DNA from: a virus
Lineage: Duplodnaviria; Heunggongvirae; Uroviricota; Caudoviricetes
IMG/VR virus record: IMGVR_UViG_2541047725_000010
Reading direction: 5' to 3' (one strand)
DNA length: 41,240 nucleotides
Below the pieces are notes generated by a model. That model searched no databases, had not been told where the DNA came from, and saw only the letters and a program-made list of their open reading frames with translations. Made by a program: the position numbers and the translations under genes. Within the stretch, counting starts at the first letter, position 1, and the number at the start of each line of letters is the position of its first letter. Shown piece by piece: positions 8,544-30,784 of this stretch.

Positions 8544-8555
8544 GTGACATGTCAC
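8544..8555. repeat. 12-bp perfect palindrome GTGACATGTCAC, copy 1
   Basis: Overlaps the TGA stop of gene 8552-8848; identical copy at 28897-28908. Confidence 0.6.
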
Positions 8556-8848
8556 GTCCCTTTTCTGAATGATAGCCATTCGAAAAATGATGACATTCCA
8601 CCGCAGACAATAGCAAAGATGATCCCACCAAAGAAGAGAAGGCCAGCCTGCCACCACTCCCACCGCCATACATCCACAGCGCCAACCATACCAACAATCG
8701 CTCCAACAAATGGAATATAGCTCACGATGAAAGCAATGGGGGCTGCAATTATCCAGTGCAATCCCCACCATGATTCAAGCCCAGCCATAATTGCTGCCAA
8801 CTGAAAAAGACCAACGACGATATAAACAATGAATCCTATAGCTTGCAT
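8552..8848 (-). CDS. Small integral membrane protein
   Basis: 98 aa, three hydrophobic helices, Trp-rich; follows the last internal virion protein gene. Confidence 0.55.
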   Translation of the reverse strand: MQAIGFIVYIVVGLFQLAAIMAGLESWWGLHWIIAAPIAFIVSYIPFVGAIVGMVGAVDVWRWEWWQAGLLFFGGIIFAIVCGGMSSFFEWLSFRKGT

Positions 8849-8860
8849 GTAGTCACCTAT

Positions 8861-9034
8861 TTACCCAGTAAAAATAAGAGGCCTCCCCTCAATAAGGCTT
8901 GCAACAAGAACTACTCCCTGCACAACAAAGATGAACCAGCAAATAGCTTGAGTCTGAGGGTTAAGAAAATATTTGTAGCGGTCAATAAATAACAATCCAC
9001 CAGAAATTATCACACTCAAAATAATTAAAAACAC
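8861..9034 (-). CDS. Possible small membrane protein (below ORF-track threshold, GTG start)
   Basis: 58 codons found by hand, almost wholly hydrophobic; no clear RBS; coordinates may be off by a base or two. Confidence 0.25.
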   Translation of the reverse strand: MFLIILSVIISGGLLFIDRYKYFLNPQTQAICWFIFVVQGVVLVASLIEGRPLIFTG

Positions 9035-9043
9035 AACACTTCC

Positions 9044-11518
9044 TTATTGCGGAGTGACATCCTGAGGTCGCCACCAGTATGTCTGGTTAAACTCTTTCTT
9101 CGAACGTTGCTCCATTTTACGCAAATAGCCTAGTGAAAAATACTCCTGCATCTGATTAAAGATCATGTGATCGAGAGCCGCCTTCAAGTACCAGAGATTC
9201 GCACCTGGCATCAAACCTTTCCCCAGCTTCACCAGATCACCACCAGTCTGCTCACTCTTCCCTTCCACAGCATTTAACGGTATGCCCTGAGCAATCTTCA
9301 CTACGTCATCAACCAGACCAGCTACCGGGCCAAGCATCGACGCCAGCGCGCCGCTTCCGTACCTAGTGTGATCTGACAATAAAAAGTCACCATAAAGGCC
9401 AAGACCACCACCTTTCAGTAGAGCACCAAGCCAGAATTTTGCGGCATCTTCTCCTGTCATCTCTCGAGGATTACGACCAGACGCAAGGTCGTTAAGTTGT
9501 TGCGACAAAGCGCCAAGAATGGTCGTACTGGCAATAAACGTCGCAATATATGCCGCACGCCCACCAGCAGACGGCATACCCATAGCGCGTGACCAGTGAC
9601 GCATAACAACCGAGATAGGGAACGATTTAAACAGGAAAACACTTCTCGTTAATTCACCTTTCCATGTTCCACGCTGAATACCAGAACCGGTTATCAGTTG
9701 CTCACGTGCTCCCGGTGTAATAACAGCCATATCAACTTCTTCAGTTACGGCACCGAGCAGTTTACGCATTGCCTCAAATTTCACGCGTTCAGGCTCACCA
9801 AGATGTTTAACTGCTGAATCAGGGATACGCATAATGCTTTCCGGTGTCAGCATCGTATTATTACCGTTCCCCCAGTCCTCCTGTTGCGCCAGCTTCCATA
9901 CGCTCCAGTCTGTGTCAGTAATCCCTTTGCTTTTCAGGATACGAAAATCAGAGTCATCGAGGCTACGAAGGTCTGGTGTTCGTGACACTACTTCTCCCAG
10001 GCTTCCCATCATGGTTACGCCATAGGCGCGCTTGTGCGCATCTGACCATGCTGTAAGCCCACTGGCACGCATTACCGCCGTTGCCGCCCAACGAGACACT
10101 GACGGCCCCATATTATCCATCGCCCAGCGGTTAACGCTGCCAAGTAGAGATTCCATCGCCAGACCAGCGCGGCGCGCCCGCGCAAGTTCTGTACGGTTCG
10201 TTGGGTCCATAGCTTCAAGCTGGTTGCGGAATAACTGGTTCATTGGAAGGTTGGTAACCTTCGCAGACAGATACATGGTTCCAAGATCAGAGAACGATGA
10301 CAGCAACGCGGATCCGAGTCTGCTGGCAACCAGCCAGTTGCGGATATTGTCAGACCATCGCGCGATGTGCGGATTCGCTACAGGCTGTGTCTTTCCGGAA
10401 ATAAAGTTGTACAGATTCTCTGTGTTGTTCGCTAGCCGCTCGACTTTACCGGTTTTACTCGGGTTAGCGGTTGCCGTTTCTGCCTTCACCTGATCAAGAA
10501 GAGAGCGGAAAACATGATCGGGGTTTGGGCCATATGTTTCCACCAGTGCAATATCTTTACTGATACCTTCCAGGTGACCGACCATGATTTCCCATAGAGA
10601 GCGATCGCCATAAAGTTGCTGATATTGCAGATAGGAATCTGCATCTTTGAAATGTATCTGTCGTGATGCATTACCACGGTTAGCACGTGCGCCGGAAATT
10701 CGCATTCCGGTATCAGTAAGCTTATTCAGCCCACCAGTAGCGATCGTGTTATAAGCCTCTCCAAGAAATGCAGACAACTCGGCATCGTTCATCAGTTGTC
10801 CATCGGCTCGGATATAATATTTGCGATCCAGCTTACCTATAACATCGCTAACCCACTTATCCTTTGATACCGCCCCAACCTTTTCCATAGAATGATGTTG
10901 AGGGATCCCCCAGTTTTCGAGATAGCCAATGTCCCCACCAGCATCATTAAACCGGCGGCGCAGCAGCTCTGTAACTTCTCTCCACGCCTTAGCACCTTTT
11001 CTTGCTTTAGCATTGCCAGTATTTTGCCCCCGCATTTCATATACCAAGTCACGTACGCCCGCTTCATCTTCAAACAGACCAAAAAAGCGAGGATCAACTG
11101 CTTCGAATGCCTCCTGCAATTGACTCAATGCATAATCACGGGTGGCTTTTGTTCTGGATTCAACAGAGAGGAAATTAGATTTACCGTCTGCATTAAAAGC
11201 TATAGTACGGTTAAGAGCGCCAAGTTTCCCATCAGCCCCTTGATAGCTATTGATAAATTTATCCAATCTCTGACGCGCGGCTATAGTGAGAGCCACACGA
11301 CGTTTCTTTAATGCCGCTTCTCGCTGTAATTCTTCAGATGCCAATTGTGCTGCTCGATATAGCCGCTCTGATTCGGAAAGTTGTCGCCACGACATCGGGT
11401 CATCACGAGCAATGGAGCGCATATTTCGATAAATGCGGTCTTCAATGTTCTGTATTTCTCGCGCCGTTAACGTGCGCTGCGCCGCCTGCTGGACCGCTTG
11501 TATACATTCCTGTCTCAT
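9044..11518 (-). CDS. Large virion internal/ejection protein (T7 gp16-like position)
   Basis: 824 aa; GAGAGG RBS; last of the large proteins following the tail-tube genes. Confidence 0.55.
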   Translation of the reverse strand: MRQECIQAVQQAAQRTLTAREIQNIEDRIYRNMRSIARDDPMSWRQLSESERLYRAAQLASEELQREAALKKRRVALTIAARQRLDKFINSYQGADGKLGALNRTIAFNADGKSNFLSVESRTKATRDYALSQLQEAFEAVDPRFFGLFEDEAGVRDLVYEMRGQNTGNAKARKGAKAWREVTELLRRRFNDAGGDIGYLENWGIPQHHSMEKVGAVSKDKWVSDVIGKLDRKYYIRADGQLMNDAELSAFLGEAYNTIATGGLNKLTDTGMRISGARANRGNASRQIHFKDADSYLQYQQLYGDRSLWEIMVGHLEGISKDIALVETYGPNPDHVFRSLLDQVKAETATANPSKTGKVERLANNTENLYNFISGKTQPVANPHIARWSDNIRNWLVASRLGSALLSSFSDLGTMYLSAKVTNLPMNQLFRNQLEAMDPTNRTELARARRAGLAMESLLGSVNRWAMDNMGPSVSRWAATAVMRASGLTAWSDAHKRAYGVTMMGSLGEVVSRTPDLRSLDDSDFRILKSKGITDTDWSVWKLAQQEDWGNGNNTMLTPESIMRIPDSAVKHLGEPERVKFEAMRKLLGAVTEEVDMAVITPGAREQLITGSGIQRGTWKGELTRSVFLFKSFPISVVMRHWSRAMGMPSAGGRAAYIATFIASTTILGALSQQLNDLASGRNPREMTGEDAAKFWLGALLKGGGLGLYGDFLLSDHTRYGSGALASMLGPVAGLVDDVVKIAQGIPLNAVEGKSEQTGGDLVKLGKGLMPGANLWYLKAALDHMIFNQMQEYFSLGYLRKMEQRSKKEFNQTYWWRPQDVTPQ

Positions 11519-11523
11519 TTAAT

Positions 11524-13326
11524 TTAACCTCTCAAGAAACACGCCACAGCGACATCAAACAGGCTGGAATCCTGTATTGCCTGCTCACTTTCCCTGTTCG
11601 CTTCATCCAGTACTTCACGCGCGCTGCGCGATTGTGGATTACCATCATCATCCAGCACGGTGATTATCATGTCAGGTGATTCAAGCAGCGAGTCTTCAGC
11701 TATGCGCAGATCAATATCTCCTGCCTGATCTGACATCATTTTTTGTTCTGCCTGTTGCAATATTTTATCAGGCTCAAAAGGAGCTACTTCGTCTGGCGTC
11801 CTGACCTCTGCTGTTTTATAGAATGAAACAGCCTGAGCATTAAGTTCACTTTCTGCCTGCTGTCTCCGAGCCAGTTCTGCTAGAGCTTCAAAAAACTGAC
11901 CGCCAGGCTCGTGCGGTGCCAACGCGTTACGGGAAAATTCCAGGCGTTCTTGTGCCTGCCGGATTCGTTGATCAATATCGCGAAGTCTGGCCTGTTTATC
12001 TGATCGAGCACGAGACAAAGCTTTACCGCTACCGGTTGGCTCTTCTGCAAGAATTTGTGCACGCTGTTCAGTGAGATTTTCAATAATTCGTTGGCTATTA
12101 GCGATTTCCGACTGGTAAACCTGTCTATCGCCACGCGGCAAAAGCTGCGCGGCCTGTTCTTCAAGCAACCGATTTTCTATAGCGCGCGCCGTTACTCCAT
12201 CATCTACAGATGACAGAGCCTCATTAACTGCCTGAGACAGCAGACTCTTGCGCCCAGGAATTTCACTGAAAGATGCAGACTCAACAATGCTGGCAACGTC
12301 TACAGGTCTCCCCTGGCTAACATCAGACATGGCTTTTCGCAGAGCCTGAATGTGAGAATTGCGCGAAAGCACGTTGATCGGCACGCCGGGAGCAATATCA
12401 ATTTCAGCATGATGAGCGGCATTCGCCGCCAGTGCAGCATCGACATCAACTGGTGAAAAATTTGGTGCGCTTGTAGACTCGCCGCGAGAGTTAATAAATC
12501 TGCCGACACCACCAAACGCCACTCCAAGAACAGCATCAATAGCAATTGCCTGTCGATCCAACACATCATACTGATTAGCCATTTCGCTATAGCCACCATC
12601 ACGAAGCGTTTTTGCAGTAAGCCCACGCTGTGCCATACCGAACGCAATATTTGTACCTGCGGCATAGGCAATATCTGGCGTTGCACGTACTGCTGTTGCT
12701 GCGGCGCGTCGCACTGAACTTTCACCCGTCCGCGCAAGCTGAGCCGCCACACCTTCCGCCAGCGCACCACCAGCACGTAACCCGAGGCTCATAGGGATCA
12801 GTGTTCCGGCACCAGCAGTAATACCCTGCACTAATCCCGCTTCCTGCGCCGTCCTGAAATCAACACCCTGTGCTGTCAGCCGTTCAAACTCAGAAAAACC
12901 CTGTAGCGAAGTTACCGCCGCAGCACCTCCGACCGGACCACCGAGCGTTGTACCGACAACAGCCTGCCCGCCCATATCGAACAACCCATAAAGGACCTGC
13001 CCGGCGGTTCCGGTTGTCGCGGCATCAGGCGTCAGCCGCTTAACCTGCTGCTCTGCTAGTTTTCTCTGCTCAGCAATGTATGAAACTGAAGTGTCATTGA
13101 ACGAGGTGTTTTCGTTAACAAACTGAGCAATCGGGGATACGATTTTATCCATCCCTGCCCATAGCAACTGATCTGGCTTTGCCACCAGCCCGGAGTACAA
13201 ACCAGACAATGCCGCTCCTACAGCATTGTCGAAAAAACCAACATCGCTGTTAAATCCAGCTGGATTTGATGCAGCTTCGTCAAGCTGCTGATTCTGGTTT
13301 ACTGGATTAAGGCCAAAGTAACTCAT
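11524..13326 (-). CDS. Virion internal/ejection protein
   Basis: 600 aa, Gly/Ala-rich; ATGA overlap with the upstream gene. Confidence 0.55.
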   Translation of the reverse strand: MSYFGLNPVNQNQQLDEAASNPAGFNSDVGFFDNAVGAALSGLYSGLVAKPDQLLWAGMDKIVSPIAQFVNENTSFNDTSVSYIAEQRKLAEQQVKRLTPDAATTGTAGQVLYGLFDMGGQAVVGTTLGGPVGGAAAVTSLQGFSEFERLTAQGVDFRTAQEAGLVQGITAGAGTLIPMSLGLRAGGALAEGVAAQLARTGESSVRRAAATAVRATPDIAYAAGTNIAFGMAQRGLTAKTLRDGGYSEMANQYDVLDRQAIAIDAVLGVAFGGVGRFINSRGESTSAPNFSPVDVDAALAANAAHHAEIDIAPGVPINVLSRNSHIQALRKAMSDVSQGRPVDVASIVESASFSEIPGRKSLLSQAVNEALSSVDDGVTARAIENRLLEEQAAQLLPRGDRQVYQSEIANSQRIIENLTEQRAQILAEEPTGSGKALSRARSDKQARLRDIDQRIRQAQERLEFSRNALAPHEPGGQFFEALAELARRQQAESELNAQAVSFYKTAEVRTPDEVAPFEPDKILQQAEQKMMSDQAGDIDLRIAEDSLLESPDMIITVLDDDGNPQSRSAREVLDEANRESEQAIQDSSLFDVAVACFLRG

Positions 13327-15836
13327 TGCGGAATATCTCCGGAGAATCTCTGGCGCTTCTGTGTCAGATTAAGAACAACGGGAGAACCATCATCTTTCAG
13401 CAGATAACCAGTACCAAGCTTCACCAGGTACTGACTATCGCCGTAACTTTGCAAACCATACTGACCAGGCGGTGTTTTTATCCCGGAGCCGACAACTTGT
13501 TCATTCCAAGCCTGATTAACCTGCTTATCGAATTGCTCTGCAGACATTCCCCACGGCAAAAGGACATTCCCCATTCCGTTATAGTCATGCACGCCACCTG
13601 TAGCTACGTTAACAGCCTGTTTCCAGACATCATTGTCAATTTCTCCTGATACCACGCCTTTTTTCGCCATCACACCAGCGTAATAATCCTTTGCGATCTC
13701 GTATGCCATTGATGCCCCATGAGCGTCACCAGCAAATGCATCCTTCACCATGTCAGAAAACTCAAGGCGAAGATCAGCATCTTTAGGCATCGGAATACCT
13801 TTCGCATCATCAGTACCTTTACGAGCCGCCGCGCCAGCAAGAATTGTCTGCGCAGCGGTTTCAGGAGACACGGAAACATCCGGATTAAACCAGTTTTTTT
13901 CTGCCAAAATACCACCAGGCTTATCCATCAGTATCCCGGCAACGGCAGCAGATGGAGCGTTGGCACTGATCTGCTGTAGTGCTGACATATACATCTGCCC
14001 ACCACCAGTGCTCTGCCTGATGGTATCGAGATATGCTGCCTGTTGGGAAACTGGAGCATCACGAAAGAAAACACCGATCTGATTGGCCTCGTCTTTGGAA
14101 AAGAACGTCAGTGGAGTGCCATATGACTTAGCAAGGTCACTGACCTGAGCGGCACGCAAGGCAACGCTCTGTCCAAAGTTATCCTTATTGCTCATGTCGA
14201 TAGGCTTTGCCTGTCCGGAGGCAAGAGAGAACTGCACAGGATCCGACTGCCGCTGCTTTATCACCTGATTTGCAGCCGAAACAACGTTGTCATAAAGAGC
14301 TGCGCGTGCCGCATACCCCTCCCCTGTATCACCAGTATCCGGGCGTAATTGCTCAACATATGCTGTAATGCTGCTTGTCGGCATGTTGCGGAAAGAGCCT
14401 ATATACTGTCCGGCGATCTGCGTATTCTTAAACTCGGTATATCGCAGGTTTCCTTCTCTGACTCCATAAGCTGCAATAAAATCATCCTCACCAGGTGGGT
14501 TAGGAAATTCAACGCCACGCATATACGCAGCCGTCGCATCGCGAACCCGGCTGTCGAGCATCGTTTTATATTCAGCCTGCTGCTGCCGACGCAGTTGATC
14601 CGCCTGTCGCATAAAACTTGCTTGCGCCTCAGGAGATGCCGCATCGAATGCTGCATTACCGGTATAGCGTTTGGTGTTGGTTGGAATTGTTGATAAACCA
14701 AGTGCTGCACTGACACCAGCAGTTAACTGCTGATCACTGTATGGCTGGCTACCGTTCTCATGATGGATAATGGCTGCACAAAGCGCCTTCAGGGTATCAG
14801 GATTAGATGCATCGAGAGGCTCATCAGCAGAAACGCCAAGTTGTTCGCACACTGCTTTGATATACGACATAGTGTCATTTTTATCAGTAGGCGGTGCCCA
14901 GCGATTAATTATCTCGCTGACGGTATCAATACCCTGCCTCTGATACGACATCAGGTTCCGCCCTAATGCACGAATCCCGTGTTCAGGTGTTTCGAATTTA
15001 GCAAATCGACCATCATCACCGGTCTGGCCTACCCACGGATTAGTTTTGCTGTATTCGAGATTTCCTGGGTTATTGTTGCGTATGCCACGGGCACGCTCGG
15101 AAGAGTCACTATCTGCTACAGCACGGCGAGCTCCAGCAGCAGTATCACTTAACTCGCCATTACTTTGGATGAATGCGGTCGCATTGTTTGCCGACCACTG
15201 GGACAATGCAGCATCAGCAACCTTCTCTTTAAACTCGATTTTCTTGGCCTGGATTTGCTCGTCACTCCAGCCATGTGCAATGCCGTAATCCTCAATTTGC
15301 TGGAAAGTTTGCTTATTAGCCAATACGTATGCGGCGTTGTCGCCATACAATGCTGCGGCATTTTTACCATTGTTCAGCAGCGTAGCCTGAAACTGGCCTT
15401 CTTCGTAGGCATTTATTTGCCCTATCTCGTGCCGCCCTGCCTGCGTAGTGAACTGAATGCGCTGCTGCTGCGCCTGCTGCATGAAAGCATTACGAGCCTG
15501 TTCATCCGGCAGCGACATAGCCAGTTGTTCGACCTGAGCATCAAACTGCTGCGTATACTCCTGACCTTTTCCAATAGCATTTTTCCCTTTCAGGTTAAGC
15601 AATCCTGTTTCAGGATTATTCAGCAGATCACTGCTTATCTGACTGAGGTTAAGAGATGCCTCCTGAGCCAGAGCGATATTGGCACGCTGTTTTGCCTGAC
15701 CAAAAACATCAATTGCCTCTGTCCCTGCCCGAACAAAAGCATCACCAATACCTGGCTGAGAAAACGTCTGCAAGCCTGCTGACTGAACTCCACGGCTCTG
15801 AACCTGACGGCCGGATACTGTTGGTACGACTGGCAT
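13323..15836 (-). CDS. Large virion internal protein (T7 gp15-like position)
   Basis: Start placed at ATG 15836 (GGAGG RBS, TAATG coupling) rather than the track start 15911; about 837 aa. Confidence 0.55.
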   Translation of the reverse strand: MPVVPTVSGRQVQSRGVQSAGLQTFSQPGIGDAFVRAGTEAIDVFGQAKQRANIALAQEASLNLSQISSDLLNNPETGLLNLKGKNAIGKGQEYTQQFDAQVEQLAMSLPDEQARNAFMQQAQQQRIQFTTQAGRHEIGQINAYEEGQFQATLLNNGKNAAALYGDNAAYVLANKQTFQQIEDYGIAHGWSDEQIQAKKIEFKEKVADAALSQWSANNATAFIQSNGELSDTAAGARRAVADSDSSERARGIRNNNPGNLEYSKTNPWVGQTGDDGRFAKFETPEHGIRALGRNLMSYQRQGIDTVSEIINRWAPPTDKNDTMSYIKAVCEQLGVSADEPLDASNPDTLKALCAAIIHHENGSQPYSDQQLTAGVSAALGLSTIPTNTKRYTGNAAFDAASPEAQASFMRQADQLRRQQQAEYKTMLDSRVRDATAAYMRGVEFPNPPGEDDFIAAYGVREGNLRYTEFKNTQIAGQYIGSFRNMPTSSITAYVEQLRPDTGDTGEGYAARAALYDNVVSAANQVIKQRQSDPVQFSLASGQAKPIDMSNKDNFGQSVALRAAQVSDLAKSYGTPLTFFSKDEANQIGVFFRDAPVSQQAAYLDTIRQSTGGGQMYMSALQQISANAPSAAVAGILMDKPGGILAEKNWFNPDVSVSPETAAQTILAGAAARKGTDDAKGIPMPKDADLRLEFSDMVKDAFAGDAHGASMAYEIAKDYYAGVMAKKGVVSGEIDNDVWKQAVNVATGGVHDYNGMGNVLLPWGMSAEQFDKQVNQAWNEQVVGSGIKTPPGQYGLQSYGDSQYLVKLGTGYLLKDDGSPVVLNLTQKRQRFSGDIPQ

Positions 15837-16381
15837 TATAATCCTCCGGGTAATCTGGTTCCTGCTGCTGACCCGATTGGCGCAGGGGTGCTTTGAGTAA
15901 ACGGACTCCACGTCCCACCAAACATCTGGTACGCACCGTATGCCTTCAGAGGCGCAGTGAGCAATGTTGTTGCTGCTCCCACATTCTCCTGTTTACGGGC
16001 TGAACTGGCTTCTGCTTTATAGTTGGCAGCCTGAACCTGATAACCGTAAGCCTCGCGTTGCGCGTTATTCACCGTCGTCAGCGAATCAAGAGCGCCAAAC
16101 TGGGCAGTGTCGCCAAATATATCCAGCGCGTTACCTGTAGATAAATCAGCGCCGGTAGCCCCCATTGTCGCCGCCTGTGTACCAAGCCGCTGTCGGGTCT
16201 CTCTGCGCCGTTGCTCAGCTTCAGCGTTACCTCTGTTTATTGCATCATTTGCCTGAGCTGTGGCTATATCTGCGTTCGCTTCTGCAACCTTCGAGGTATA
16301 CTTTCCCTGTTGGTACTGGGTGTATGCCTGAATGCCACTCATGGCGAGCATTGCGCCACCAGCAATAACCGGATCGCACAT
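15836..16381 (-). CDS. Small virion internal protein (T7 gp14-like position)
   Basis: 181 aa; N-terminal hydrophobic segment, Ala/Gln-rich; coupled to neighbours. Confidence 0.45.
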   Translation of the reverse strand: MCDPVIAGGAMLAMSGIQAYTQYQQGKYTSKVAEANADIATAQANDAINRGNAEAEQRRRETRQRLGTQAATMGATGADLSTGNALDIFGDTAQFGALDSLTTVNNAQREAYGYQVQAANYKAEASSARKQENVGAATTLLTAPLKAYGAYQMFGGTWSPFTQSTPAPIGSAAGTRLPGGL

Positions 16382-16845
16382 TATTTTCTCTCCATGTGAA
16401 ATCTGTGGAAATTAAGACCAAGAGCACCATAAGGCGCGGCTTCTTCAAGCCTGAATCCAAGCCAGTGCAGCCATGCTTTGGCAACATGGTTTCGCTCGTC
16501 GACATAGTTTTCCAGGCGCGGATAAACTGCCAGCATCTGCTGCAATACAGGGCGGCAGTGGCGAAGAAATGTCTTCTGATATTTTTCGATACGGCTGGTT
16601 CCGACCAGCCAGGGCGTACCATTGCCACCGATCATTGACGCCGGAGATACGCCAAACATGGTTACCAGTTCTCCGTTCGCAAATCCTGACCAGGACATAG
16701 TCGCAGTACGCAGACCAACACGCAGCGCATCTTCGGTAGTCATCAGTGATACCGCATACAGTTCGTCAATATCAGCCTGACGAACATCCGGCAAAATCAT
16801 CTGAAGATGCTCTTCGGTTGCGGGAATAATTTGAACATCGATCAT
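16381..16845 (-). CDS. Virion-associated protein (T7 gp13-like position)
   Basis: 154 aa; coupled to the tail-tube B-like gene. Confidence 0.45.
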   Translation of the reverse strand: MIDVQIIPATEEHLQMILPDVRQADIDELYAVSLMTTEDALRVGLRTATMSWSGFANGELVTMFGVSPASMIGGNGTPWLVGTSRIEKYQKTFLRHCRPVLQQMLAVYPRLENYVDERNHVAKAWLHWLGFRLEEAAPYGALGLNFHRFHMERK

Positions 16846-20244: not shown

Positions 20245-20256
20245 ATACACTCCTGC

Positions 20257-20276: not shown

Positions 20277-20294
20277 TTGTCTCATCCGCGAGGC

Positions 20295-20639: not shown

Positions 20640-20640
20640 C

Positions 20641-21078
20641 TTAACCAGTTACTTTTGAGCGGATCGGGTACGGTGTATTGGCATCAACATCCAGACTGAT
20701 ACCCGCAGTGAATTTGCCGGCCGTTAGTGGGCCAGTTGCGACGGAGTAGTTAACACGCAGATATCGCTGAACACCGGCAGGCACCTTTGCAGAAACAACT
20801 CGTTTACCTGCTTTCAGGGTAGCCTTTGCCAGTTCGCCACTATCATAAATAGTGGACCATGAGCTGTTATTCTCACTCGTCTGCAACTGGATGTTTACAG
20901 TTGCCTCACCACTTGCCGTGGCGGCTTCGTTAACCAGCGCCCAAAACTCAAGCGGGTAACCCACGCCGATATCGCGACGATTTCCATCAATTGGACCGAG
21001 ATCGATTACGTCAGTAGAAGCCGCGGTATTCGTAACCGCCTGAGCTTCGGAGAACATCAACAGTTTGTCGGTGATCAT
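20641..21078 (-). CDS. Possible capsid decoration protein
   Basis: 145 aa immediately downstream of the major capsid gene; beta-rich composition. Confidence 0.4.
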   Translation of the reverse strand: MITDKLLMFSEAQAVTNTAASTDVIDLGPIDGNRRDIGVGYPLEFWALVNEAATASGEATVNIQLQTSENNSSWSTIYDSGELAKATLKAGKRVVSAKVPAGVQRYLRVNYSVATGPLTAGKFTAGISLDVDANTPYPIRSKVTG

Positions 21079-21129
21079 CTTCTTTCTCCATTAGTGGGTC
21101 TGTTACGACCAACAGGTTAATAACAGGCG

Positions 21130-22122
21130 TTACACCACGCGGGCTTCTGTTTCCAGAAGCGCATCAGTTTCACGGATTGGTACACCACGGAATGAAGTCC
21201 ACCACTCGCCTTCAGTCTCTTTTACGCTGATAGCCAGAGATGTTTTCTCCAGAGACTGCAGATCAAGAGCCTGGCCTACAGTGCGGTTCATGTAGAACAC
21301 CGGGCGGCCCATGCCACGGTTTGGAATGCGATGCAGTGCTTTAACCATCAACTTCGCAATATTTGCGGCAGAGGAAGGTTCTGAAAGATTGCTGACATCG
21401 ATGTTTGCAATGCGAACAACATAACGCCAGTCACGCAGAGCAAGTCCGTTGTCCCATTTGTAATGGGTACGGTAGCCTTCGTACTTGCCGCCATTAACAT
21501 CTTCCAGTGTCACCTGGCCTTTATCTTCCATCTGGATGCCAGCCTTCTGCCCTTTCGGGAAGATGCCATGCACGGTGTTTTCGCCCCACACCACTAACCA
21601 GATTGAGGTGTTATCTGTACCCGTGCCACCAGCATCAATGATGTTCTGAGCATTACCCGCAGACAGGCTGGAATAGCGGGAGGACAGTCCCATAAACTGC
21701 TGAGGGTTAACGCTGGAATCACCATAAAACAACGTCTGCGCCATCTGCTGATTCATCGCTTCAATAAATGCGCGGTCTTCAGACAGGCGGAATTCGGCGG
21801 TATTACCGTTCAGATCAGCCAGTGACTTATCGACTTCAGCATAGGTTTCCAGCATTCCAACGGAATCGGTGACCTGCACTGTGGTTGATTTGCTTGGCTG
21901 TACGCCATAGTTCAGCAAACGCCAGGTGGCCGAAGGTAAACCAGAACGAATGGTGGTTCGGTGTCCGGTAGGAAGGTTCCCTTCGACAAAAGGCATATCC
22001 TGAAGGATCGGGTTAGTTTGACCGAGAAGCTCGATAATCTTATCGACTTTCCCGTTTGGATCGACGCGCTTACCCCAGTCAGCCAGCGTTAGCGCAGTTA
22101 AGCCTTTAACAGACATTGTCAT
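21130..22122 (-). CDS. Major capsid protein
   Basis: 330 aa directly after the scaffold-like gene with AGAGAGGAAA RBS; true start may be the second ATG (MSVKGL). Confidence 0.65.
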   Translation of the reverse strand: MTMSVKGLTALTLADWGKRVDPNGKVDKIIELLGQTNPILQDMPFVEGNLPTGHRTTIRSGLPSATWRLLNYGVQPSKSTTVQVTDSVGMLETYAEVDKSLADLNGNTAEFRLSEDRAFIEAMNQQMAQTLFYGDSSVNPQQFMGLSSRYSSLSAGNAQNIIDAGGTGTDNTSIWLVVWGENTVHGIFPKGQKAGIQMEDKGQVTLEDVNGGKYEGYRTHYKWDNGLALRDWRYVVRIANIDVSNLSEPSSAANIAKLMVKALHRIPNRGMGRPVFYMNRTVGQALDLQSLEKTSLAISVKETEGEWWTSFRGVPIRETDALLETEARVV

Positions 22123-22130
22123 TTCCTCTC

Positions 22131-22832
22131 TTATTTGCCATAGAGCACTTCGGCCGCACTACGCTGGCCTTCATTACCACCGGTGACCATGCCATCTTCA
22201 GACATCGCCTTTCCGATTTTCACGAACGTTTTGACCAGATCAGGGTGATTACCCAGCCCGGTGGTGTTCAGATATTCTTTGAGCTCAGGTGTCCCGAACT
22301 GGTCAAGCGCACGCTGTGCGGCGCTAAGGTTAGAAATCAACTTGTCGCCACCGATTTCTTTGTCAGCTTTTACATCCGCAGCCCACTGCTCGGTTGTTTT
22401 CTGCCAGGCTTCTGCCTGGCGCTGCTGAACACCTGCCAGAATCTTCGGATAAGCATCAACCAGCTTTTGCGCTTGCTCGTTGGTCAGGTTAAGTTCTCGC
22501 GCCACAGGCTCGAATTCCTTCAACGCTTCTGTATCCAGCTCTACGCCTTCGGCAGCCTGAAACTCGTACTTCTCAGGCGCACCCTCTGGTTTATTGCCGT
22601 CCTTTTTTTCATCCTGCTTATCGTTTTCAGGCTTTTTGTCATCAGCAGGTTTATCGCCATCAGCAACAGGTTGTGGCTTATCACCTTCCTGTTGTGATGG
22701 ATCACCAACTGGAGCAGGGTTATCACCTGCAGGCGCTGACGGTTCTGACGCAGCCGGAGCTGCTCCACCATCGACTGGTTGCTCATTGCAAAGACGGCGA
22801 TACAGCAAACGCTCAAATAAATTCATGATCAC
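22131..22832 (-). CDS. Scaffolding protein
   Basis: 233 aa, acidic with a low-complexity Pro/Asp/Lys segment; between portal and capsid. Confidence 0.55.
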   Translation of the reverse strand: MIMNLFERLLYRRLCNEQPVDGGAAPAASEPSAPAGDNPAPVGDPSQQEGDKPQPVADGDKPADDKKPENDKQDEKKDGNKPEGAPEKYEFQAAEGVELDTEALKEFEPVARELNLTNEQAQKLVDAYPKILAGVQQRQAEAWQKTTEQWAADVKADKEIGGDKLISNLSAAQRALDQFGTPELKEYLNTTGLGNHPDLVKTFVKIGKAMSEDGMVTGGNEGQRSAAEVLYGK

Positions 22833-23125
22833 TCCTGTTCACTGGCCTCTTTGGCCATCTTCAAATACTGTTCAGGGCAATGCGCCATAACGCGCTGAAA
22901 CAGTTCCAGCGCCAGATTGCGTTGCCCCTCATTAAACGCCATTGCCATAGCGTCCATCGGTGAGATAGCGGAAAACACACGGCCTTTCTCCAGCACCGAC
23001 CAGACAACGCGACGCCCCTGTTCACTGCTCATGACAAAGCGAATGTCATCAATTTCACGCTGCGCCATGTCACGTTGCTTACGGGCGTTTTCTTCTTTCA
23101 GTTGATCGTCTTCGTAATCTGTCAT
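22829..23125 (-). CDS. Hypothetical head-module protein
   Basis: 98 aa; ATGA overlaps with both neighbours. Confidence 0.45.
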   Translation of the reverse strand: MTDYEDDQLKEENARKQRDMAQREIDDIRFVMSSEQGRRVVWSVLEKGRVFSAISPMDAMAMAFNEGQRNLALELFQRVMAHCPEQYLKMAKEASEQE

Positions 23126-24801
23126 TGTGATTGCCCACCCTGACCACTAACTGCATTCGCCATAGCTGACAACACACTCGGATCCGAAGTTTTAGCTTCG
23201 CTTAGCGTCTTGGCACCCTGTGCCGCAGCCATCCCCATCGCCATCATTTGTTGCTGCTGTTGCTGCTGTGCCCGTTGCTGGCGAGCCTGCTCAACCTGTT
23301 CCTGCGGAACAATGACGGTTGGAGACACTCCAGACATATCAGCGAATGCATCGATCGCCTGATCAACGTTGAGTTTGTCGAGAGCTTCTGGTTTCGCTTG
23401 CGCAAGTTGACCAATGAAGTTGACCGTGGATGCCAGACTGGACAGGCCGATAGACTTCTGCGCCTGAGCCATGACGGAAATGTATTCGACCTTCAGGGGC
23501 ATACCTTCCATCGCGTCAGGCGGTGGCGGCAGCATGTTTTTACGCACCATCATCGAGAAAGCGCGGTCAATGAGAGGATTAAGACATTCGTCGTTCAGAC
23601 GCTCCAGAACCGGCCCCAACATCAGAAGTTTTTCTTCTTTCATTTCGATCACCGCTTCAACAGGCATCGAGCGGGTATTGATGTTCTGCAACATCATGAA
23701 CAGATCGACAAAGTAGGCGCTGTTAATGATTTGCCGAGTGTCCTGAATGTCTGCTACCAGATCTGCTGTACTGGGGTTAACCAGATAAGCAGGCCTGAAA
23801 CCATCCTGACCAGTAATCTGATCGATATACGTGATGTCGCCAGGAAGAAGGGAGGCACGCTGATTCTTGAGGGAAGTCGGAGCAACCATCGGCGGATTGG
23901 TGGCTTTATCAATCAACTGCGACTTGCGCTTCTGAAGAAGCTGCAATGCCTTAACAGGTCCAAGCGCCAGCATACCCGGGCATGATGATCCATAAACATC
24001 TTCGCCGTTAACTTCCCAGCGCGGAGCCATAATTGGAAACTCATCGAATCCGGACTCACGCAACAACTTGTCGTTATCGCCACCAACCTCGTAATAAACC
24101 GATTTGAATGGCTTGTTCTTGCTATCCAGCTTCGATGTATCGCGGTCAATGTTCGGGTAAACCGAATGCATCACTTCAATCCACTTCTCGTAGGTGCCGC
24201 TTTCCCACATGCTTTTTACGGATTCGCTGACGTTATTTAGCCCGAACTCCTGAACAAGCTGACGAACAGTCATAGCGAACTTGCGAAAACAGGTGTCCAC
24301 ACTGCCACGAGGTGAGTTAGCTAGGTAGTAACTGCCTATCGGGAATGGCATTGTGCGAATGATGTCCTCGTCATCTTCCAGCACTGCCATTGCACCAGTG
24401 CTGTATGTGCCGAGGCTTCCGTATAACTGCGGCAGCGACTGATAGAGATTCGACTTATTGAACATATCGTTCATGCGGTTCTGCACCGCCTCAAGCCACA
24501 ACTTAACAGGGCCATAATCCATCATTTCAGGATCTGGCGTAGCCAGGCGAAACCACGGACGCGCGGGGCTTGTGATGCCTGACATCATGCCGCTGGCGAG
24601 AGTGCGCGCCGCCATAGTCCCGGTCGAATCAATAATGCGTGTATTGCGTCGATCGTTACGGTTGACCTCAGAAGTCAGAAAGCGGGAACCACGCGGGTTG
24701 ATGTAATCACTCAACTCGCGCCAGTGCGGCTCGAACGACTGACGCTCGCTTTCAAGTTGTGCGAACTGTTTGTTCAATCGCTCTTTAGTTGTTTCCGCCA
24801 T
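23122..24801 (-). CDS. Portal protein
   Basis: 559 aa; position between terminase and scaffold; Gln/Ala-rich C-terminus; GGAG RBS. Confidence 0.75.
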   Translation of the reverse strand: MAETTKERLNKQFAQLESERQSFEPHWRELSDYINPRGSRFLTSEVNRNDRRNTRIIDSTGTMAARTLASGMMSGITSPARPWFRLATPDPEMMDYGPVKLWLEAVQNRMNDMFNKSNLYQSLPQLYGSLGTYSTGAMAVLEDDEDIIRTMPFPIGSYYLANSPRGSVDTCFRKFAMTVRQLVQEFGLNNVSESVKSMWESGTYEKWIEVMHSVYPNIDRDTSKLDSKNKPFKSVYYEVGGDNDKLLRESGFDEFPIMAPRWEVNGEDVYGSSCPGMLALGPVKALQLLQKRKSQLIDKATNPPMVAPTSLKNQRASLLPGDITYIDQITGQDGFRPAYLVNPSTADLVADIQDTRQIINSAYFVDLFMMLQNINTRSMPVEAVIEMKEEKLLMLGPVLERLNDECLNPLIDRAFSMMVRKNMLPPPPDAMEGMPLKVEYISVMAQAQKSIGLSSLASTVNFIGQLAQAKPEALDKLNVDQAIDAFADMSGVSPTVIVPQEQVEQARQQRAQQQQQQQMMAMGMAAAQGAKTLSEAKTSDPSVLSAMANAVSGQGGQSQ

Positions 24802-24815
24802 TTCAATGACTCCGG

Positions 24816-25022
24816 TTACTGACCAAGCAGCGTTTTACCGCTGGTATTAGCGGTTGATGTGTCGCCCTGAGAACCGGTAAGCAGCGTAGAACTACGACCA
24901 GCAGCAGCGCGACGGCGACGAGTTTCTTCGTCGCGGGCATCAACAACGGCGGCATCCTGCTCCTGTGGTGCTGCCTGAACTTCTGGTGTTGCAGGCACTG
25001 ATGGTGAGCTACCCATGCACAT
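24816..25022 (-). CDS. Small hydrophilic protein upstream of portal
   Basis: 68 aa; GGAG RBS; its initiation region CGGAGTCATTGA-N-ATG is nearly identical to that of the portal gene. Confidence 0.4.
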   Translation of the reverse strand: MCMGSSPSVPATPEVQAAPQEQDAAVVDARDEETRRRRAAAGRSSTLLTGSQGDTSTANTSGKTLLGQ

Positions 25023-25111
25023 ATCAATGACTCCGTACGCAATTAAATTATTACCAATTTAACCACATATGATTTATTTATCGTAGATAGTTGACATTTA
25101 ACGCACGAATT

Positions 25112-25128
25112 ATTACCTTTCAGGTAAC
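25112..25128. promoter_or_regulatory. Operator-like palindrome ATTACC-TTTCA-GGTAAC
   Basis: Upstream of the head operon; a TTGACA hexamer lies at 25091-25096. Confidence 0.45.
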
Positions 25129-25449
25129 CAAAGAGTTCATTCCGGTTACTAACCTGACTGGCTTGTCGTTAAATTGAACAGGTGGAGTGAGCTTTTATTT
25201 TGAGCAGTACGGCGTATGGCACATGCGCCGATAGCGGTCTGGATACGTTTAAGGGGCACCCTCCCTTGCTCGGGCAAACGAACCAGGTAGCCGGAATGTG
25301 CAAGTCGAGCGGTTTTATTCCGCGCACGGGGATTCACCATCCCGGCGATTCGGTGTGACGCCTCGGAAGAGACGAGGGTACAACGATGAGAGCATTTATG
25401 GAGCCGCGACAAAGTGTGGCGCCTTAACAGGCTAAGTGCTCTCAGCGTT

Positions 25450-25526
25450 GTGGCATTAGCTCAGTTGGACAGAGCAACCGCCTTCTAAGCGGTTGGTCGC
25501 AGGTTCGAATCCTGCATGCCACGCCA
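25450..25526 (+). tRNA. tRNA-Arg, anticodon UCU (phage-encoded)
   Basis: Hand-folded cloverleaf: 7-bp acceptor GTGGCAT/ATGCCAC, D-stem GCTC/GAGC, anticodon stem ACCGC/GCGGT with loop CTTCTAA, T-stem GCAGG/CCTGC with GGTTCGAATCC, discriminator G and encoded CCA. Confidence 0.85.
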
Positions 25527-25569
25527 GAATCACGCCTAAGGACCGTGATGCCAGAAGTTCCAGGTGCTT

Positions 25570-25611
25570 GGCGGTGATGCTTTCCCTTGAAGGACTATCA
25601 CCGCCCTTTTT
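25570..25611 (+). terminator. Hairpin plus T-run downstream of the tRNA
   Basis: GGCGGTGAT...ATCACCGCC 9-bp stem with large loop, then CTTTTTA. Confidence 0.35.
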
Positions 25612-25689
25612 ACAGCAGGACGCCATTGCGATGACTTCATGCTGTAAACCAGTACAGCCACGGAAGGCATAACTCATTGCTTCCAGTTC

Positions 25690-25712
25690 GCCCACTTCAG
25701 TGGGCTTTTTTT
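25690..25712 (+). terminator. Intrinsic terminator
   Basis: GCCCAC-TTCA-GTGGGC followed by TTTTTTT. Confidence 0.6.
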
Positions 25713-25725
25713 CTAGTGACTACTG

Positions 25726-25742
25726 ATTACCTTATGGGTAAT
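25726..25742. promoter_or_regulatory. Operator-like palindrome ATTACC-TTATG-GGTAAT overlapping a candidate promoter
   Basis: 32 bp upstream of ATG 25774; TAATAT -10-like hexamer at 25739-25744. Confidence 0.5.
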
Positions 25743-25773
25743 ATACTGCAAACTAATAACACAAGGCCGTGAC

Positions 25774-26664
25774 ATGCTTGACTTCATCCGTGACATTTAC
25801 TCCTCTTTCCGCCAAGCATCTCTTGAGCGGGTGAAAAGCCCGTTCCTTGGGGCATTTGTTTTTTCCTGGCTTTGCTTTAATTGGCAGATGTTAGCAATTC
25901 TATTTTTTAGTTCTAAGGATATTGAAAAGCGCCTTGCTATTATTAATGGCTCTTTCGGCATCGTCAGCTTTTTAATTGCGCCAATATGCACTACAGCATT
26001 GATAGTTATCCTTTTACCGCAAATTAATAAATTGATTACAATAATACAAGATAAACCTAACTCAGACACAATTGAAATGAGCCTTGCATCTAAAATAAAG
26101 ATCGCCGAACTGCAGCAACTATTAGCAGAAAATGAAGCAAGAAAGAAACTTGCTGATAAAAAAGAAGAACGCTTCATTGAAGAGAATATTATTTCAATAA
26201 AAAAAGACCATGAAAAAGCAATAGATAACCTTAAAGACAAAGAAAGTAAAATCTCAAATCTCACGGACACAATAACTGAACTTCAGAGCAAACTGGTTAA
26301 AGCTGAGGCCACTCTCAAAGTTGAACAGGAGTCAAGATCCCAAGTGCAGAATGAATTGATTATTGAAAAAGAGAACAAGCGGAAATTAGAAGACAACATT
26401 CTGCACCTTAATTTAAGTTTAAAAAAAAACCAATCAGAATTGGCCATTGCAAAAGAAGCCTATGATAATACCTTGATGGCTTATAATGAACTTAACACAA
26501 CATTAAAAAAAGCAGAAAGCTCAATAATAAACTTCAATGCTAACTTTCCTTTTTTAACTGACATAAATAACAGCACCCCAAATACATACTTAAAAATAAA
26601 TAAAAATGCATGGGAGCATTTAGTTAGTTTAAATTTAAGTCTAAAGGAGAAAATACAAAAATAA
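25774..26664 (+). CDS. Membrane-anchored coiled-coil protein (cargo gene, function unknown)
   Basis: 296 aa; two N-terminal TM helices then about 200 aa of heptad-like Lys/Glu/Leu-rich sequence; very AT-rich; opposite strand to the flanking late genes. Confidence 0.6.
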   Translation: MLDFIRDIYSSFRQASLERVKSPFLGAFVFSWLCFNWQMLAILFFSSKDIEKRLAIINGSFGIVSFLIAPICTTALIVILLPQINKLITIIQDKPNSDTIEMSLASKIKIAELQQLLAENEARKKLADKKEERFIEENIISIKKDHEKAIDNLKDKESKISNLTDTITELQSKLVKAEATLKVEQESRSQVQNELIIEKENKRKLEDNILHLNLSLKKNQSELAIAKEAYDNTLMAYNELNTTLKKAESSIINFNANFPFLTDINNSTPNTYLKINKNAWEHLVSLNLSLKEKIQK

Positions 26665-26687
26665 ATAACCAATCCACTATGGCATAT

Positions 26688-28157
26688 TTACTCATACGGG
26701 TCATAATCTATTATAGCCCTGCCCTGCTGCTGCCGTGGGTCATTAGTTTTCTTGGCTACCGGGAACGCAAACGTCAGCAGTAGCGCATCGCCTTTACCAG
26801 GTGAACGCCCAAGTCGTTCTTTGATATCTTCCTTCGGTTCGATAACGATTTTACCGTCCACGCGAACTTTGTACTCTGCCGCAGACAGATCGTCCGCTGT
26901 TTCCTGGTCATCCAGCATCCCGCCCAACCTCAGCCATGTCTTGCATGAGTTGAACATCTCCCCGCGCTTGTTGAGCATCTGAGGGTCAGTAGACGCGCCG
27001 CCGAACGGAACAAGTTGCCAAGTACGCCCCCAGCCATCACCGATTGACTTCAAACCGGTTCCGTAACCGAAGTCGATGAACACCGCGTCAGCCTGATACT
27101 GGTCTTCAAAGTCAGCGATACGCTTCGCCATAATCAGATCGTCAGTGGTCTTGTTGCCAGTCCACAGCACCTTACTGTGCAGCCCCTGCCGCAGGTATAT
27201 CACAGCGTCATCAACACCGGAGTATGCCGGGTCAACGCCGATTATCACCGGAGCATGTGCCACCTGCGCAGCGGTTACCACCCGTTTCATTGCCTCGTCA
27301 GTAAGACCGGTAGGGATAAACTGCAATTCAGATGCATCCGGGAATATGCCGCGCACACGGATTTTAACGAAGTCGCTGTCTTCCCCGTAGTCATCAACCC
27401 ATTTCTGCAACTGCTGTTTGTTAGTGCCTTCCACCGTCCGGCTGTCAATCTGCGCAGTTTTCCAGCGGTGTTTATATTTGCGGAAACATTCGCGGAAACG
27501 CCCGGTATTACGCGTCGGGTTCCCGAACGCCACCCAGATGATTTCGGTGTCTTCGTCCGTCAGCGCACCCTCTGCTACATCCCACACCAGATCGGCAATG
27601 TTGGATGCTTCGTCGAAAACCACGATGATGCGTTTGCGCTCGTTGTGTAGTCCGGCGAATGCCTCAGTGTTGTGCTCAGACCAGGGGATTGCGTCAGCTC
27701 GCCACCGCTTGTCGTGCCCAGGATCATTGCTGTACATCGCGGTAGCGGTACAGGTAAACCAGTCTTTCGTGATGGCAAGGTTCGACCACTTGATAATTTC
27801 CGGCCAGGTCTTCGTTCGTAGCTGGTTGTCGGTGTTGGCGGTCACCACGACCTTACAATCCTCGCAAGTGGACATGCCCCAGTTGATCAGCATTGAGATG
27901 AATGCGGATTTACCAATACCGTGACCAGAAGCGCGTGCCAGCATAAGCGGCTGATAGCGCGTCTCTGGATTCTGCAGGTGATCACGTATCTCTCGGAACG
28001 CATCGGCCTGCCACTGACGTGGACCGGTAGCATGTGCCAGTTCAGTCCCCTCTTCCCCCCAAGGGAACGCATAGAGGGCATAGCCAAGCGGATCGTGAGT
28101 GAACCCTGCAATATCTTCGATTAACTGCTCTTCAGGAGATAACGCTGCATCTGTCAC
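26688..28157 (-). CDS. Terminase large subunit
   Basis: 489 aa; ATPase then nuclease domain order; upstream of portal; overlaps terminase small. Confidence 0.8.
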   Translation of the reverse strand: MTDAALSPEEQLIEDIAGFTHDPLGYALYAFPWGEEGTELAHATGPRQWQADAFREIRDHLQNPETRYQPLMLARASGHGIGKSAFISMLINWGMSTCEDCKVVVTANTDNQLRTKTWPEIIKWSNLAITKDWFTCTATAMYSNDPGHDKRWRADAIPWSEHNTEAFAGLHNERKRIIVVFDEASNIADLVWDVAEGALTDEDTEIIWVAFGNPTRNTGRFRECFRKYKHRWKTAQIDSRTVEGTNKQQLQKWVDDYGEDSDFVKIRVRGIFPDASELQFIPTGLTDEAMKRVVTAAQVAHAPVIIGVDPAYSGVDDAVIYLRQGLHSKVLWTGNKTTDDLIMAKRIADFEDQYQADAVFIDFGYGTGLKSIGDGWGRTWQLVPFGGASTDPQMLNKRGEMFNSCKTWLRLGGMLDDQETADDLSAAEYKVRVDGKIVIEPKEDIKERLGRSPGKGDALLLTFAFPVAKKTNDPRQQQGRAIIDYDPYE

Positions 28158-28786
28158 TGATTACCATCCTGACGTTCTTTGAGTCGCTTCCTGGCTGCCG
28201 CTATGCGATCAGCAATTGTCACATTCACATTAACATCCAGGCGCTCTTTGAACGCGTTAACGTCGACGTGCTTACCGATGAGCTCGAGGTTTTTCACCTT
28301 GTCGGGCCATTTCACCTTCTTCAGGATATGCTCGACATCCTCAACAGAGAGATCCGCCTCGCCATTCTCTTTTTGCAGAGAAGCCTGGGTCGTCTTGATG
28401 GTAGCGATATCCATAGCACTGAGAGAGGTACGCCAGACCTTCGGCCATTCAGCGATCGGCTTCATCCCGCCGTCATCGTTCAGGATATCCAGCACGTCCA
28501 TCTGGTCGATTTCCACCAGGCGCATGAGAACGTAATCAGCACTGACGCGCATTCGTTTGTTGCGCTCCTCCATCAACTCGGCAATCCGTTTTTGAATGCG
28601 TTCATCGCGCATCATGACACTGGCTTTAACTGCCGCTGTATTTGGGGAGAATCCTGCGTTAATCGCTGCCTGAGTCTGGTTTTCAGGCGTTTTGATGTAT
28701 GACTGGCAATAAGCCTCCTGCATTGCTGTTAGTGGCTTAAATTGCGTTGATTTGCGTTTATAGGTTTTAGGTTCAGCAGGCATCAT
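28154..28786 (-). CDS. Terminase small subunit
   Basis: Start placed at ATG 28786 (GGTGG RBS), about 210 aa; the track start 28864 would put a terminator hairpin inside the ORF. Confidence 0.65.
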   Translation of the reverse strand: MMPAEPKTYKRKSTQFKPLTAMQEAYCQSYIKTPENQTQAAINAGFSPNTAAVKASVMMRDERIQKRIAELMEERNKRMRVSADYVLMRLVEIDQMDVLDILNDDGGMKPIAEWPKVWRTSLSAMDIATIKTTQASLQKENGEADLSVEDVEHILKKVKWPDKVKNLELIGKHVDVNAFKERLDVNVNVTIADRIAAARKRLKERQDGNQ

Positions 28787-28828
28787 AACCACCGTGGTAA
28801 TAGTTACCGTTGTGGTAATAGTACCATG

Positions 28829-28855
28829 CAAAATAAAGCCGCCATAGTTGGCGGC
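28829..28855 (-). terminator. Putative terminator in the late-operon leader
   Basis: On the minus strand GCCGCC-aactat-GGCGGC followed by TTTATTTTG. Confidence 0.45.
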
Positions 28856-28896
28856 AGTATTCAAAACCCATCAAATTCATCATGCATAACCCACTC

Positions 28897-28908
28897 GTGA
28901 CATGTCAC
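28897..28908. repeat. 12-bp perfect palindrome GTGACATGTCAC, copy 2
   Basis: Overlaps the TGA stop of gene 28905-29252 in the same register as copy 1; just upstream of the late-operon leader. Confidence 0.6.
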
Positions 28909-30783: not shown

Positions 30784-30784
30784 C

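Follow-up and report, generated by a model that had tools for sequence, protein, structure and literature searches.

A 12-bp palindrome linked to the stop codon of a small phage gene: a candidate binding site for the gene's own product

The DNA considered here (IMG/VR record IMGVR_UViG_2541047725_000010; 41,240 nucleotides (nt), hereafter the window) belongs to an epsilon15/phiV10-like podovirus (Uetakevirus) of E. coli. It contains exactly two copies of the 12-bp palindrome GTGACATGTCAC, at 8544-8555 (copy 1) and 28897-28908 (copy 2), the second of which overlaps the stop codon of the gene at 28905-29252. Sequence comparison shows that the site exists, that it is deeply conserved and tightly linked to this gene, and that selection acts on the DNA itself; the 28905-29252 protein as the binder, and the effect of its binding, are what we infer. 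In the favoured explanation, to which a probability of about 0.6 is assigned, the palindrome would be the cognate double-stranded DNA site of the 28905-29252 protein, and in the working model the bound protein would mark and insulate operon boundaries.

The copies overlap the stop codons of two minus-strand open reading frames (ORFs), 8552-8848 and 28905-29252, whose TGA triplets occupy palindrome positions 9-11 on the plus strand. On the minus strand both read G-TGA-CATGTCAC in identical register, and a sequence search thus confirmed the arrangement that had been described in the original prediction. No further copy was found in the window, even at one mismatch (expected 0.08; at least two in 0 of 100 shuffles), and none at up to three mismatches at a meaningful location. 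The copies have only 14 bp in common, in opposite orientation, which rules out a longer duplication spanning both. Perfect 12-bp palindromes as a class are not enriched (nine in the window against a simulated mean of 11.1), and a repeated 12-bp palindrome was obtained in 2.3% of 1000 first-order Markov simulations of the window. Its rarity within the window is therefore modest and suggestive only. The earlier claim that two copies are unlikely by chance holds strongly on comparative grounds and modestly within the window, since the significance of the palindrome comes from its conservation across relatives and not from window statistics.

Two further sequences of this kind were observed in the window. 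A near-site with one arm mismatch, GTGACCAGTGAC, lies at 9589-9600 within the gene of an 824-amino-acid virion protein; it is kept in relatives, as GTCACTGGTCAC in L158 and others, and is probably a matter of coding-constrained chance. Another perfect 12-bp palindrome, CCGCCCGGGCGG, is found at 8493-8504, about 40 bp from copy 1, within the plus-strand ORF 8287-8520, which is assigned to PHROG 3117/14503 and is membrane-associated and moron-like.

Both copies are located at the ends of operons. The structural (late) operon lies on the minus strand and extends down to 8552, with copy 1 at its 3' end. The early-right operon has copy 2 at its 3' end, between the last gene and terS; after it come an 8-codon remnant ORF, a terminator, two repressor-type operators and terS (Table 1). 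The predicted position at the early-to-late boundary was thus borne out, as was the proximity of each copy to an intrinsic terminator, the hairpins lying 0 nt (copy 1) and 41 nt (copy 2) downstream. The remnant ORF is the deletion remnant of a gene of about 70 codons that is kept at this place in about one third of relatives; its product reads MPKIRYDLED...YDEFDGL (e.g. L028 1860-2072), and the two share the same ATG.

Copy 2 is exact in 74 of 78 IMG/VR relatives and differs by a single substitution in the other four, and copy 1 is exact at 71 of 78 loci, with single substitutions in seven. The identical 12-mer is also kept in Salmonella phage epsilon15 (39612, corresponding to copy 2, and 19517, corresponding to copy 1), in which the flanking genes are only about 82% identical. 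A search of related genomes for the motif, as had been proposed, thus found it at the same positions; the refuting outcome named in the original prediction, its absence from close relatives, was not observed. Copy 1 and the terminator stem form a constant island of about 30 bp, with three unrelated classes of last gene upstream and three unrelated classes of flank downstream. In the lineage that carries the 70-residue gene, unrelated DNA begins about 14-25 nt after the start of the copy 2 palindrome.

Three copies are present in epsilon15, SPC32N and phiV10, the third lying beside the terminator between terL and a convergent gene. The window is without this terL-distal copy, and a larger convergent gene (25774-26664, 296 amino acids) occupies its position. 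All sites in epsilon15-like phages stand where a transcription unit finishes, at its 3' end and 0-41 nt ahead of a terminator. The GenBank record of phiV10 (NC_007804.2) is linearised inside a palindrome (...GTGTGA / CATGTTAC...), right after the stop of the final gene. The copy at the record ends carries a C-to-T change (GTGACATGTTAC), and the third phiV10 copy is at 2262, after the terL terminator. That the palindrome is a cos or pac site or a genome end, as the record break might suggest, was rejected: the break just follows the stop of the last gene, and there are three copies per genome.

The linkage of site and gene extends well beyond these relatives. Homologues of the 28905-29252 protein turned up in 154 phage records, whose sources include Vibrio, Escherichia, Salmonella, Klebsiella, Yersinia and Aeromonas, and clustering splits the family into 769 groups at 90% identity and 237 groups at 50%. 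GTGAC-NN-GTCAC lies on or just after the stop codon of the homologue in many phages that are not otherwise related, at protein identities down to about 30% (Table 1), and it is likewise placed in epsilon15, phiV10 and SPC32N. By chance, GTGACNNGTCAC would be expected about 0.02-0.04 times per genome (0.02 per 41 kb). Among the complete genomes examined, three sites were counted in epsilon15, SPC32N, phiV10, ZF40, N15, K233 and A051, and two in the window, AH07 and 10N.237. The extra sites of ZF40, N15, AH07, 10N.237 and A051 are found in repA (N15), in a cII-like gene (ZF40), in a Q-like gene (AH07), in a terminase gene (A051), near attP and upstream of parA. Five of the 30 Aeromonas-type loci, which include two P0200-like loci, have paired inverted copies at +22/+46, and further copies lie a few kb off. 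The original prediction had named the 28905-29252 product, described there as a zinc-ribbon protein, as a conceivable binder. The position of the site at the stops of its homologues in unrelated phages supports it as by far the best candidate, and judged by these sequences it is most likely the right one.

Several observations concern the kind of element involved. The arms, GTG(A/T)C, stay unchanged all the way from E. coli phages to those of Vibrio and Aeromonas. It is the 2-bp centre that changes with lineage (AT, TG/CA, AG/CT, AC/GC or CG), and the outer pair is T..A or C..G. Invariant arms around a variable centre point to a symmetric dimer that reads two half-sites in double-stranded DNA, not to an RNA stem. 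In N15-type phages, GTGACTGGTCAC is perfectly conserved about 620 nt into the coding sequence of repA (N15 33237). Over 19 haplotypes there is no change in this internal site or its flanks, four wobble positions included, whereas neighbouring wobble positions vary, a pattern that suggests a DNA site acting in cis within the replication gene. The frozen wobble positions, together with the constant island of copy 1 and its terminator, indicate selection on the DNA sequence itself. Across the annotated genomes, which are largely coding, 13 of 19 sites are non-coding or lie over a stop.

The 28905-29252 protein has 115 amino acids as annotated; the true start is probably a few codons inside, homologues being about 112 amino acids long. 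An AlphaFold2 model (mean predicted local distance difference test score, pLDDT, 83.8) places helices at residues 8-22, 33-45, 55-77 and 103-111, and the protein models as a ribbon-helix-helix (RHH)-like domain followed by a four-cysteine (Cys4) zinc module. In an alignment of 32 sequences the invariant residues include R11 and R16, in the N-terminal basic helix, and C43, C82, C85 and C94, with C102 nearly invariant. Among 61 representatives at 50% identity, C82 and C85 again show no variation, and each of R11, R16 and C102 is shared by 90% or more. The C-terminus consists of the Cys4 module (C82, C85, C94, C102) and the short helix 103-111, with no coiled coil. No co-variation was seen between the near-invariant E10 and the site arms; H and Q variants are still paired with GTGAC arms.

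Nothing above threshold was found for this protein in Pfam, NCBIfam, PADLOC, the PDB (by sequence and by profile) or a BFVD fold search, and its sole family match is PHROG 536, labelled 'transcriptional regulator'. PF10723 (RepB/CopB) did not match the window protein; two Vibrio homologues have precomputed PF10723 matches, and the best family member reached an E-value of 0.034, short of the gathering threshold. By these comparisons the family belongs to no characterised family. No paper with any of the 12-mers and no functional description of N15 gp46 or of the epsilon15 protein were found in the literature. Nor was any published study of the gene-plus-site pair found.

In the favoured explanation, the site would be composed of two inverted GTGAC half-sites at 2-bp spacing, presumably bound by the protein as a symmetric dimer. 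The gene and the site on its own stop codon would form a compact cassette that moves between unrelated temperate phages of enterobacteria, Vibrio and Aeromonas, and the stop-codon overlap would hold the two together through mosaic recombination. The bound protein would mark and insulate the boundaries of operons, as a barrier that backs up the terminators, and paired sites might bridge the structural module of about 20 kb; it would not switch on late genes. The barrier is suggested by the position of the sites in epsilon15-like phages, at 3' ends ahead of terminators, and pairing or bridging by the regular number of two or three sites per genome. Sites within the repA, cII-like, Q-like and terminase genes of N15, ZF40, AH07 and A051, respectively, would fit the roadblocking of chosen genes. 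No other family, RNA structure or published motif was found that accounts for the palindrome.

The pair was likened to RHH repressors and their operators (P22 Arc and Mnt, CopG, the TacA, KacA and ParD antitoxins, and IncFII CopB/RepA2, PF10723). Those operators lie upstream, in the promoter of the repressor's own gene, and serve autoregulation, whereas the phage site occupies the stop codon at the 3' end of the gene, and its other copies are at operon ends or inside genes. The phage protein also carries a conserved Cys4 module in addition, its gene is not partnered by a toxin gene, and it scores under every curated family threshold. The overall layout, with a stop-codon site, copies at operon ends or within genes, and half-sites identical to those of the chromosomal motif matS (see below), argues for something other than classical promoter-operator control, such as insulation, roadblocking or bridging.

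Several points weigh against the favoured explanation. First, 5-9% of the prophage copies carry a point mutation in a palindrome arm. Second, Salmonella phages of the SPN1S/SPC32N type keep all three palindromes although the N-terminal basic segment of the homologue has been replaced; in SPC32N (KC911857.1, 38179-38632) it is swapped for unrelated sequence and the ORF restarts at MATTTTRRQNLLELELVLDEQ.... The recombinant protein may in this case have kept its binding; otherwise the site must have another reader. Third, YenM_42.18 has no site within the 6.3 kb examined. Fourth, the fold evidence for the protein is weak. Finally, the extra sites show no obvious common positional logic across phage types, and hence the barrier or bridging role is extrapolated from the epsilon15-like genomes alone.

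A different role for the same protein is conceivable, in a phage-borne DNA-organising system like MatP/matS. In such a system the protein would pair the two or three sites, or load or exclude MukBEF, MatP or the divisome, and so shape genome topology, replication or packaging, or segregation; in a variant of this reading it would also target host matS-type sites and perturb the organisation of Ter or cell division. MatP is an RHH protein, and the hosts are MatP-bearing gamma-proteobacteria. The half-sites of the palindrome are identical to those of matS, whose consensus is GTGAC[AG]N[TC]GTCAC (PMC3603311), and the phage site equals matS minus one central base (12 instead of 13 bp). The spacer, however, is 3 bp in matS and always 2 bp in the phage sites found; no GTGAC-N3-GTCAC was present in ZF40 or in the regions of N15, AH07 and YenM_42.18 checked with spacers of 0-4 bp. 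The phage site is, moreover, tied to the stop codon of its own gene, and the whole element is phage-borne. The proteins likewise differ: MatP has an N-terminal four-helix bundle and a C-terminal coiled coil, through which tetramers bridge two sites, both missing from the phage protein, which has the Cys4 module instead. A comparison of the family profile with E. coli MatP by hhalign (MatP sequence checked against PDB 4d8j) aligned the RHH segments in register and was not significant (E-value 0.41, probability 0.14), and a PDB profile search with the family did not return MatP. This role is regarded as unlikely.

Partition proteins were compared as well (type Ib RHH proteins such as ParG and omega, and N15 SopB). 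The likeness lies in a small RHH-type protein, a gene-linked palindrome and a few dispersed copies, and in the second site of Vibrio 10N.237, which is upstream of a parA gene. The centromeres of SopB in N15 are dispersed. Most carriers, however, have no adjacent ParA, most integrate (integrases are present), and the sites are single 12-mers rather than iterated arrays.

The original prediction had proposed a late regulator, an antiterminator or activator and conceivably the 28905-29252 protein itself, as what acts at the palindrome; this role is also considered unlikely. Such a regulator would allow read-through into terS or activate a late promoter. The arrangement is reminiscent of lambda Q, QBE and tR': in the window the early genes end with the regulator gene, a short leader containing a terminator comes next and the late genes follow, and the protein has a zinc module. 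Copy 2, about 110 bp upstream of terS, gives a weak sigma-70-like match in which GTGACA serves as the -35 element, and a terminator follows 41 nt downstream. One site in K233 is close to terS, two sites flank terS-terL in epsilon15, SPC32N and phiV10, no Q is recognisable in epsilon15-like phages, and the epsilon15 annotation has no Q-like or other antiterminator, just unrelated 'transcriptional activator/regulator' genes. However, the promoter-like match (GTGACA-18-CATGAT, 9 of 12 consensus positions) is no better than in shuffled sequence, and this layout is not kept in the third or so of relatives in which the 70-residue gene lies between site and terminator. In contrast to lambda, the palindrome is outside any demonstrable late promoter, and more copies are found at 3' ends, including copy 1 at the 3' end of the late operon, and within genes. 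In ZF40, N15 and AH07, which have the gene and its sites, a Q-like regulator or late activator is encoded separately, and the extra sites listed above are away from late-operon heads. No Pfam (including its Q family), NCBIfam or PHROG antiterminator family matched the protein. The divergent late promoter region of the P2-like Aeromonas phage A051 is without a site; a late activator in the position of 186 B/Ogr in P2-like phages was rejected on the same ground.

The late operon of the window has, moreover, its own repressor operators downstream of the terminator. In the epsilon15 annotation, a repressor site ATTACC-N5-GGTAAT stands at each late operon head, and the window contains 14 sites of this type at up to two mismatches against 1.2 expected, some ahead of apparent operon starts and others in the immunity region around 35027-35611. 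This suggests that the late operons are under direct repressor control, that of the window having its own repressor-controlled promoter. The 28905-29252 protein was very probably singled out rightly as the binder; the late-regulator role proposed for it is probably wrong. The repressor motif is also what rules out the palindrome as a prophage repressor operator: the two motifs are separate, and both are present in the window.

A further alternative has as the reader of the site a host protein that enterobacteria, Vibrio and Aeromonas share, for instance MatP tolerating a 12-bp matS-like site, or some other factor, with the phage gene as a neighbour or cofactor. It would draw on the shared half-sites, on hosts that all fall in MatP-bearing groups, and on SPC32N, which retains its sites despite the altered N-terminus of the gene. 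It is given little credence, in that the spacer is always 2 bp and never 3 bp and a host factor would not explain why unrelated phages have the site at the stop codons of a single gene family; true matS motifs were missing from all 500 prophages studied in PMC3603311, which suggests that phages avoid MatP binding. The look-alike sites of CRP and SlmA were discarded as their spacing or inner bases differ.

It is improbable that the palindrome acts as RNA, as a mini-hairpin over the stop codon that would serve 3'-end stability, processing, translational coupling or terminator modulation. The site is always in transcribed DNA, often at stops, directly 5' of the terminator stem (copy 1) or of the ribosome-binding site of the next gene, and its palindromic arms give GUGAC..GUCAC from either strand. 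The hairpin that it can form on its own is, however, weak at most (predicted -4.2 kcal/mol, z -0.73); a 2-nt loop is impossible, leaving just 4-6 bp pairable. Nor is the palindrome part of the terminator hairpin, since folding leaves the GC-rich stem separate, 41 nt away at copy 2. The stem is invariant without compensatory changes and the 'loop' is variable, whereas recognition of RNA hairpins typically shows the opposite. The sites have no consistent orientation with respect to transcription, and the predicted fold of the candidate protein is of a kind that binds double-stranded DNA.

That the palindrome has no function of its own, being a chance repeat or a 'boundary' patch that persists through homologous recombination of mosaic phages, is strongly disfavoured: the significance in the window is modest, both copies lie exactly at mosaic junctions, and TGA on both strands of the motif makes the stop overlap partly automatic, but ten specified bases accompany a single gene family in phages, ranging from those of E. 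coli to those of Vibrio and Aeromonas, that otherwise share no nucleotide similarity, at 2-3 copies per genome against about 0.03 expected, and wobble positions in repA are conserved.

Other genes of the window were noted in passing. The early gene 30028-30813, on the minus strand, matches PHROG 887, 'queuine tRNA-ribosyltransferase' (E-value 9e-104). We take its product to be a DpdA/TGT-like enzyme; such enzymes are associated with the 7-deazaguanine modification of phage DNA. Genes on the plus strand that converge with the late operon at its end include a Bro-N/Ant-like antirepressor gene (6585-7322) and a gene (7765-8277) whose product gave a sub-threshold match to the YafO toxin (E-value 9.5e-4; 19.7 bits against a cutoff of 25).

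Table 1. Features of the window, and sites paired with homologues of the 28905-29252 gene in other phages
Genome	Feature	Position	Strand	Remarks
Window	Palindrome copy 1, GTGACATGTCAC	8544..8555	.	Over TGA (8552-8554) of final late-operon gene; abuts terminator stem
Window	Palindrome copy 2, GTGACATGTCAC	28897..28908	.	Over TGA (28905-28907) of RHH-like/Cys4 gene; 3' end of early-right operon
Window	Gene of 115-amino-acid protein	28905..29252	-	N-terminal basic helix, RHH-like core, C-terminal Cys4 module (predicted); last early-right gene
Window	Last late-operon gene, 98-amino-acid membrane-like protein, phrog_3075	8552..8848	-	Stop inside copy 1
Window	Intrinsic terminator of late structural operon	8526..8543	-	AGGCCGCTTTCGCGGCCT then T-run; directly 3' of copy 1
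Window	Intrinsic terminator ending early-right operon	28838..28855	-	41 nt 3' of copy 2; annotated terminator in epsilon15
Window	Remnant ORF MHDEFDGF* (8 codons)	28861..28887	-	Between copy 2 and terminator
Window	Two repressor-type operators, ATTACC-N5-GGTAAT-like	28785..28819 (28785-28801, 28803-28819)	.	Directly upstream of terS start (ATG 28786-28784)
Window	ATTACC-N5-GGTAAT-type array	28785-28801, 28803-28819, 5966, 7394, 25112, 25726, 32563, 32625, 34956, 35668, 35730		
Window	Repressor gene	35027-35611	+	
Window	Early-right operon		-	cro-like gene (34642-34872), O-like initiator, P-like loader, RusA, further genes; last is 28905-29252
Pectobacterium myovirus ZF40 (65% identity)	TGTGACATGTCACA	2 nt past gp22 stop		Other copies at 5125, 7622
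N15 (34% identity)	CGTGACTGGTCACG	Over gp46 stop		Copies at 28550 and within repA at 33237
N15-like (telomere phage) IMG/VR loci	Stop-codon site	49/49 loci		repA site in every locus with enough upstream DNA
Klebsiella Kpn74, ST512phi13.3; Pantoea AH07; Vibrio 10N.237; P0200-like phages	Stop-codon site	Overlaps stop, same register		
AH07	Second site	Within its Q-like antiterminator gene		
Vibrio 10N.237	Second site	137 nt ahead of parA		
Vibrio K233	Three sites	Two of the three: 226 nt past the gene, 20 nt ahead of the terS ATG		
P2-like Aeromonas phages	GTGACCGGTCAC or GTGTCCGGTCAC	Up to 1.5 kb downstream, up to 1 mismatch, in 25/30 loci		One over stop

The conserved site accounts for a recurrent mosaic junction in epsilon15-like genomes. 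The family of the 28905-29252 protein is at present labelled 'hypothetical' or, by similarity, 'transcriptional regulator', and it occurs in N15, epsilon15, ZF40 and many prophages of E. coli, Salmonella, Klebsiella and Vibrio. The motif GTG(A/T)C-NN-G(T/A)CAC beside the gene is offered as a signature for its annotation. If the favoured explanation is true, a concrete, testable DNA target would be assigned to this family of small phage proteins.

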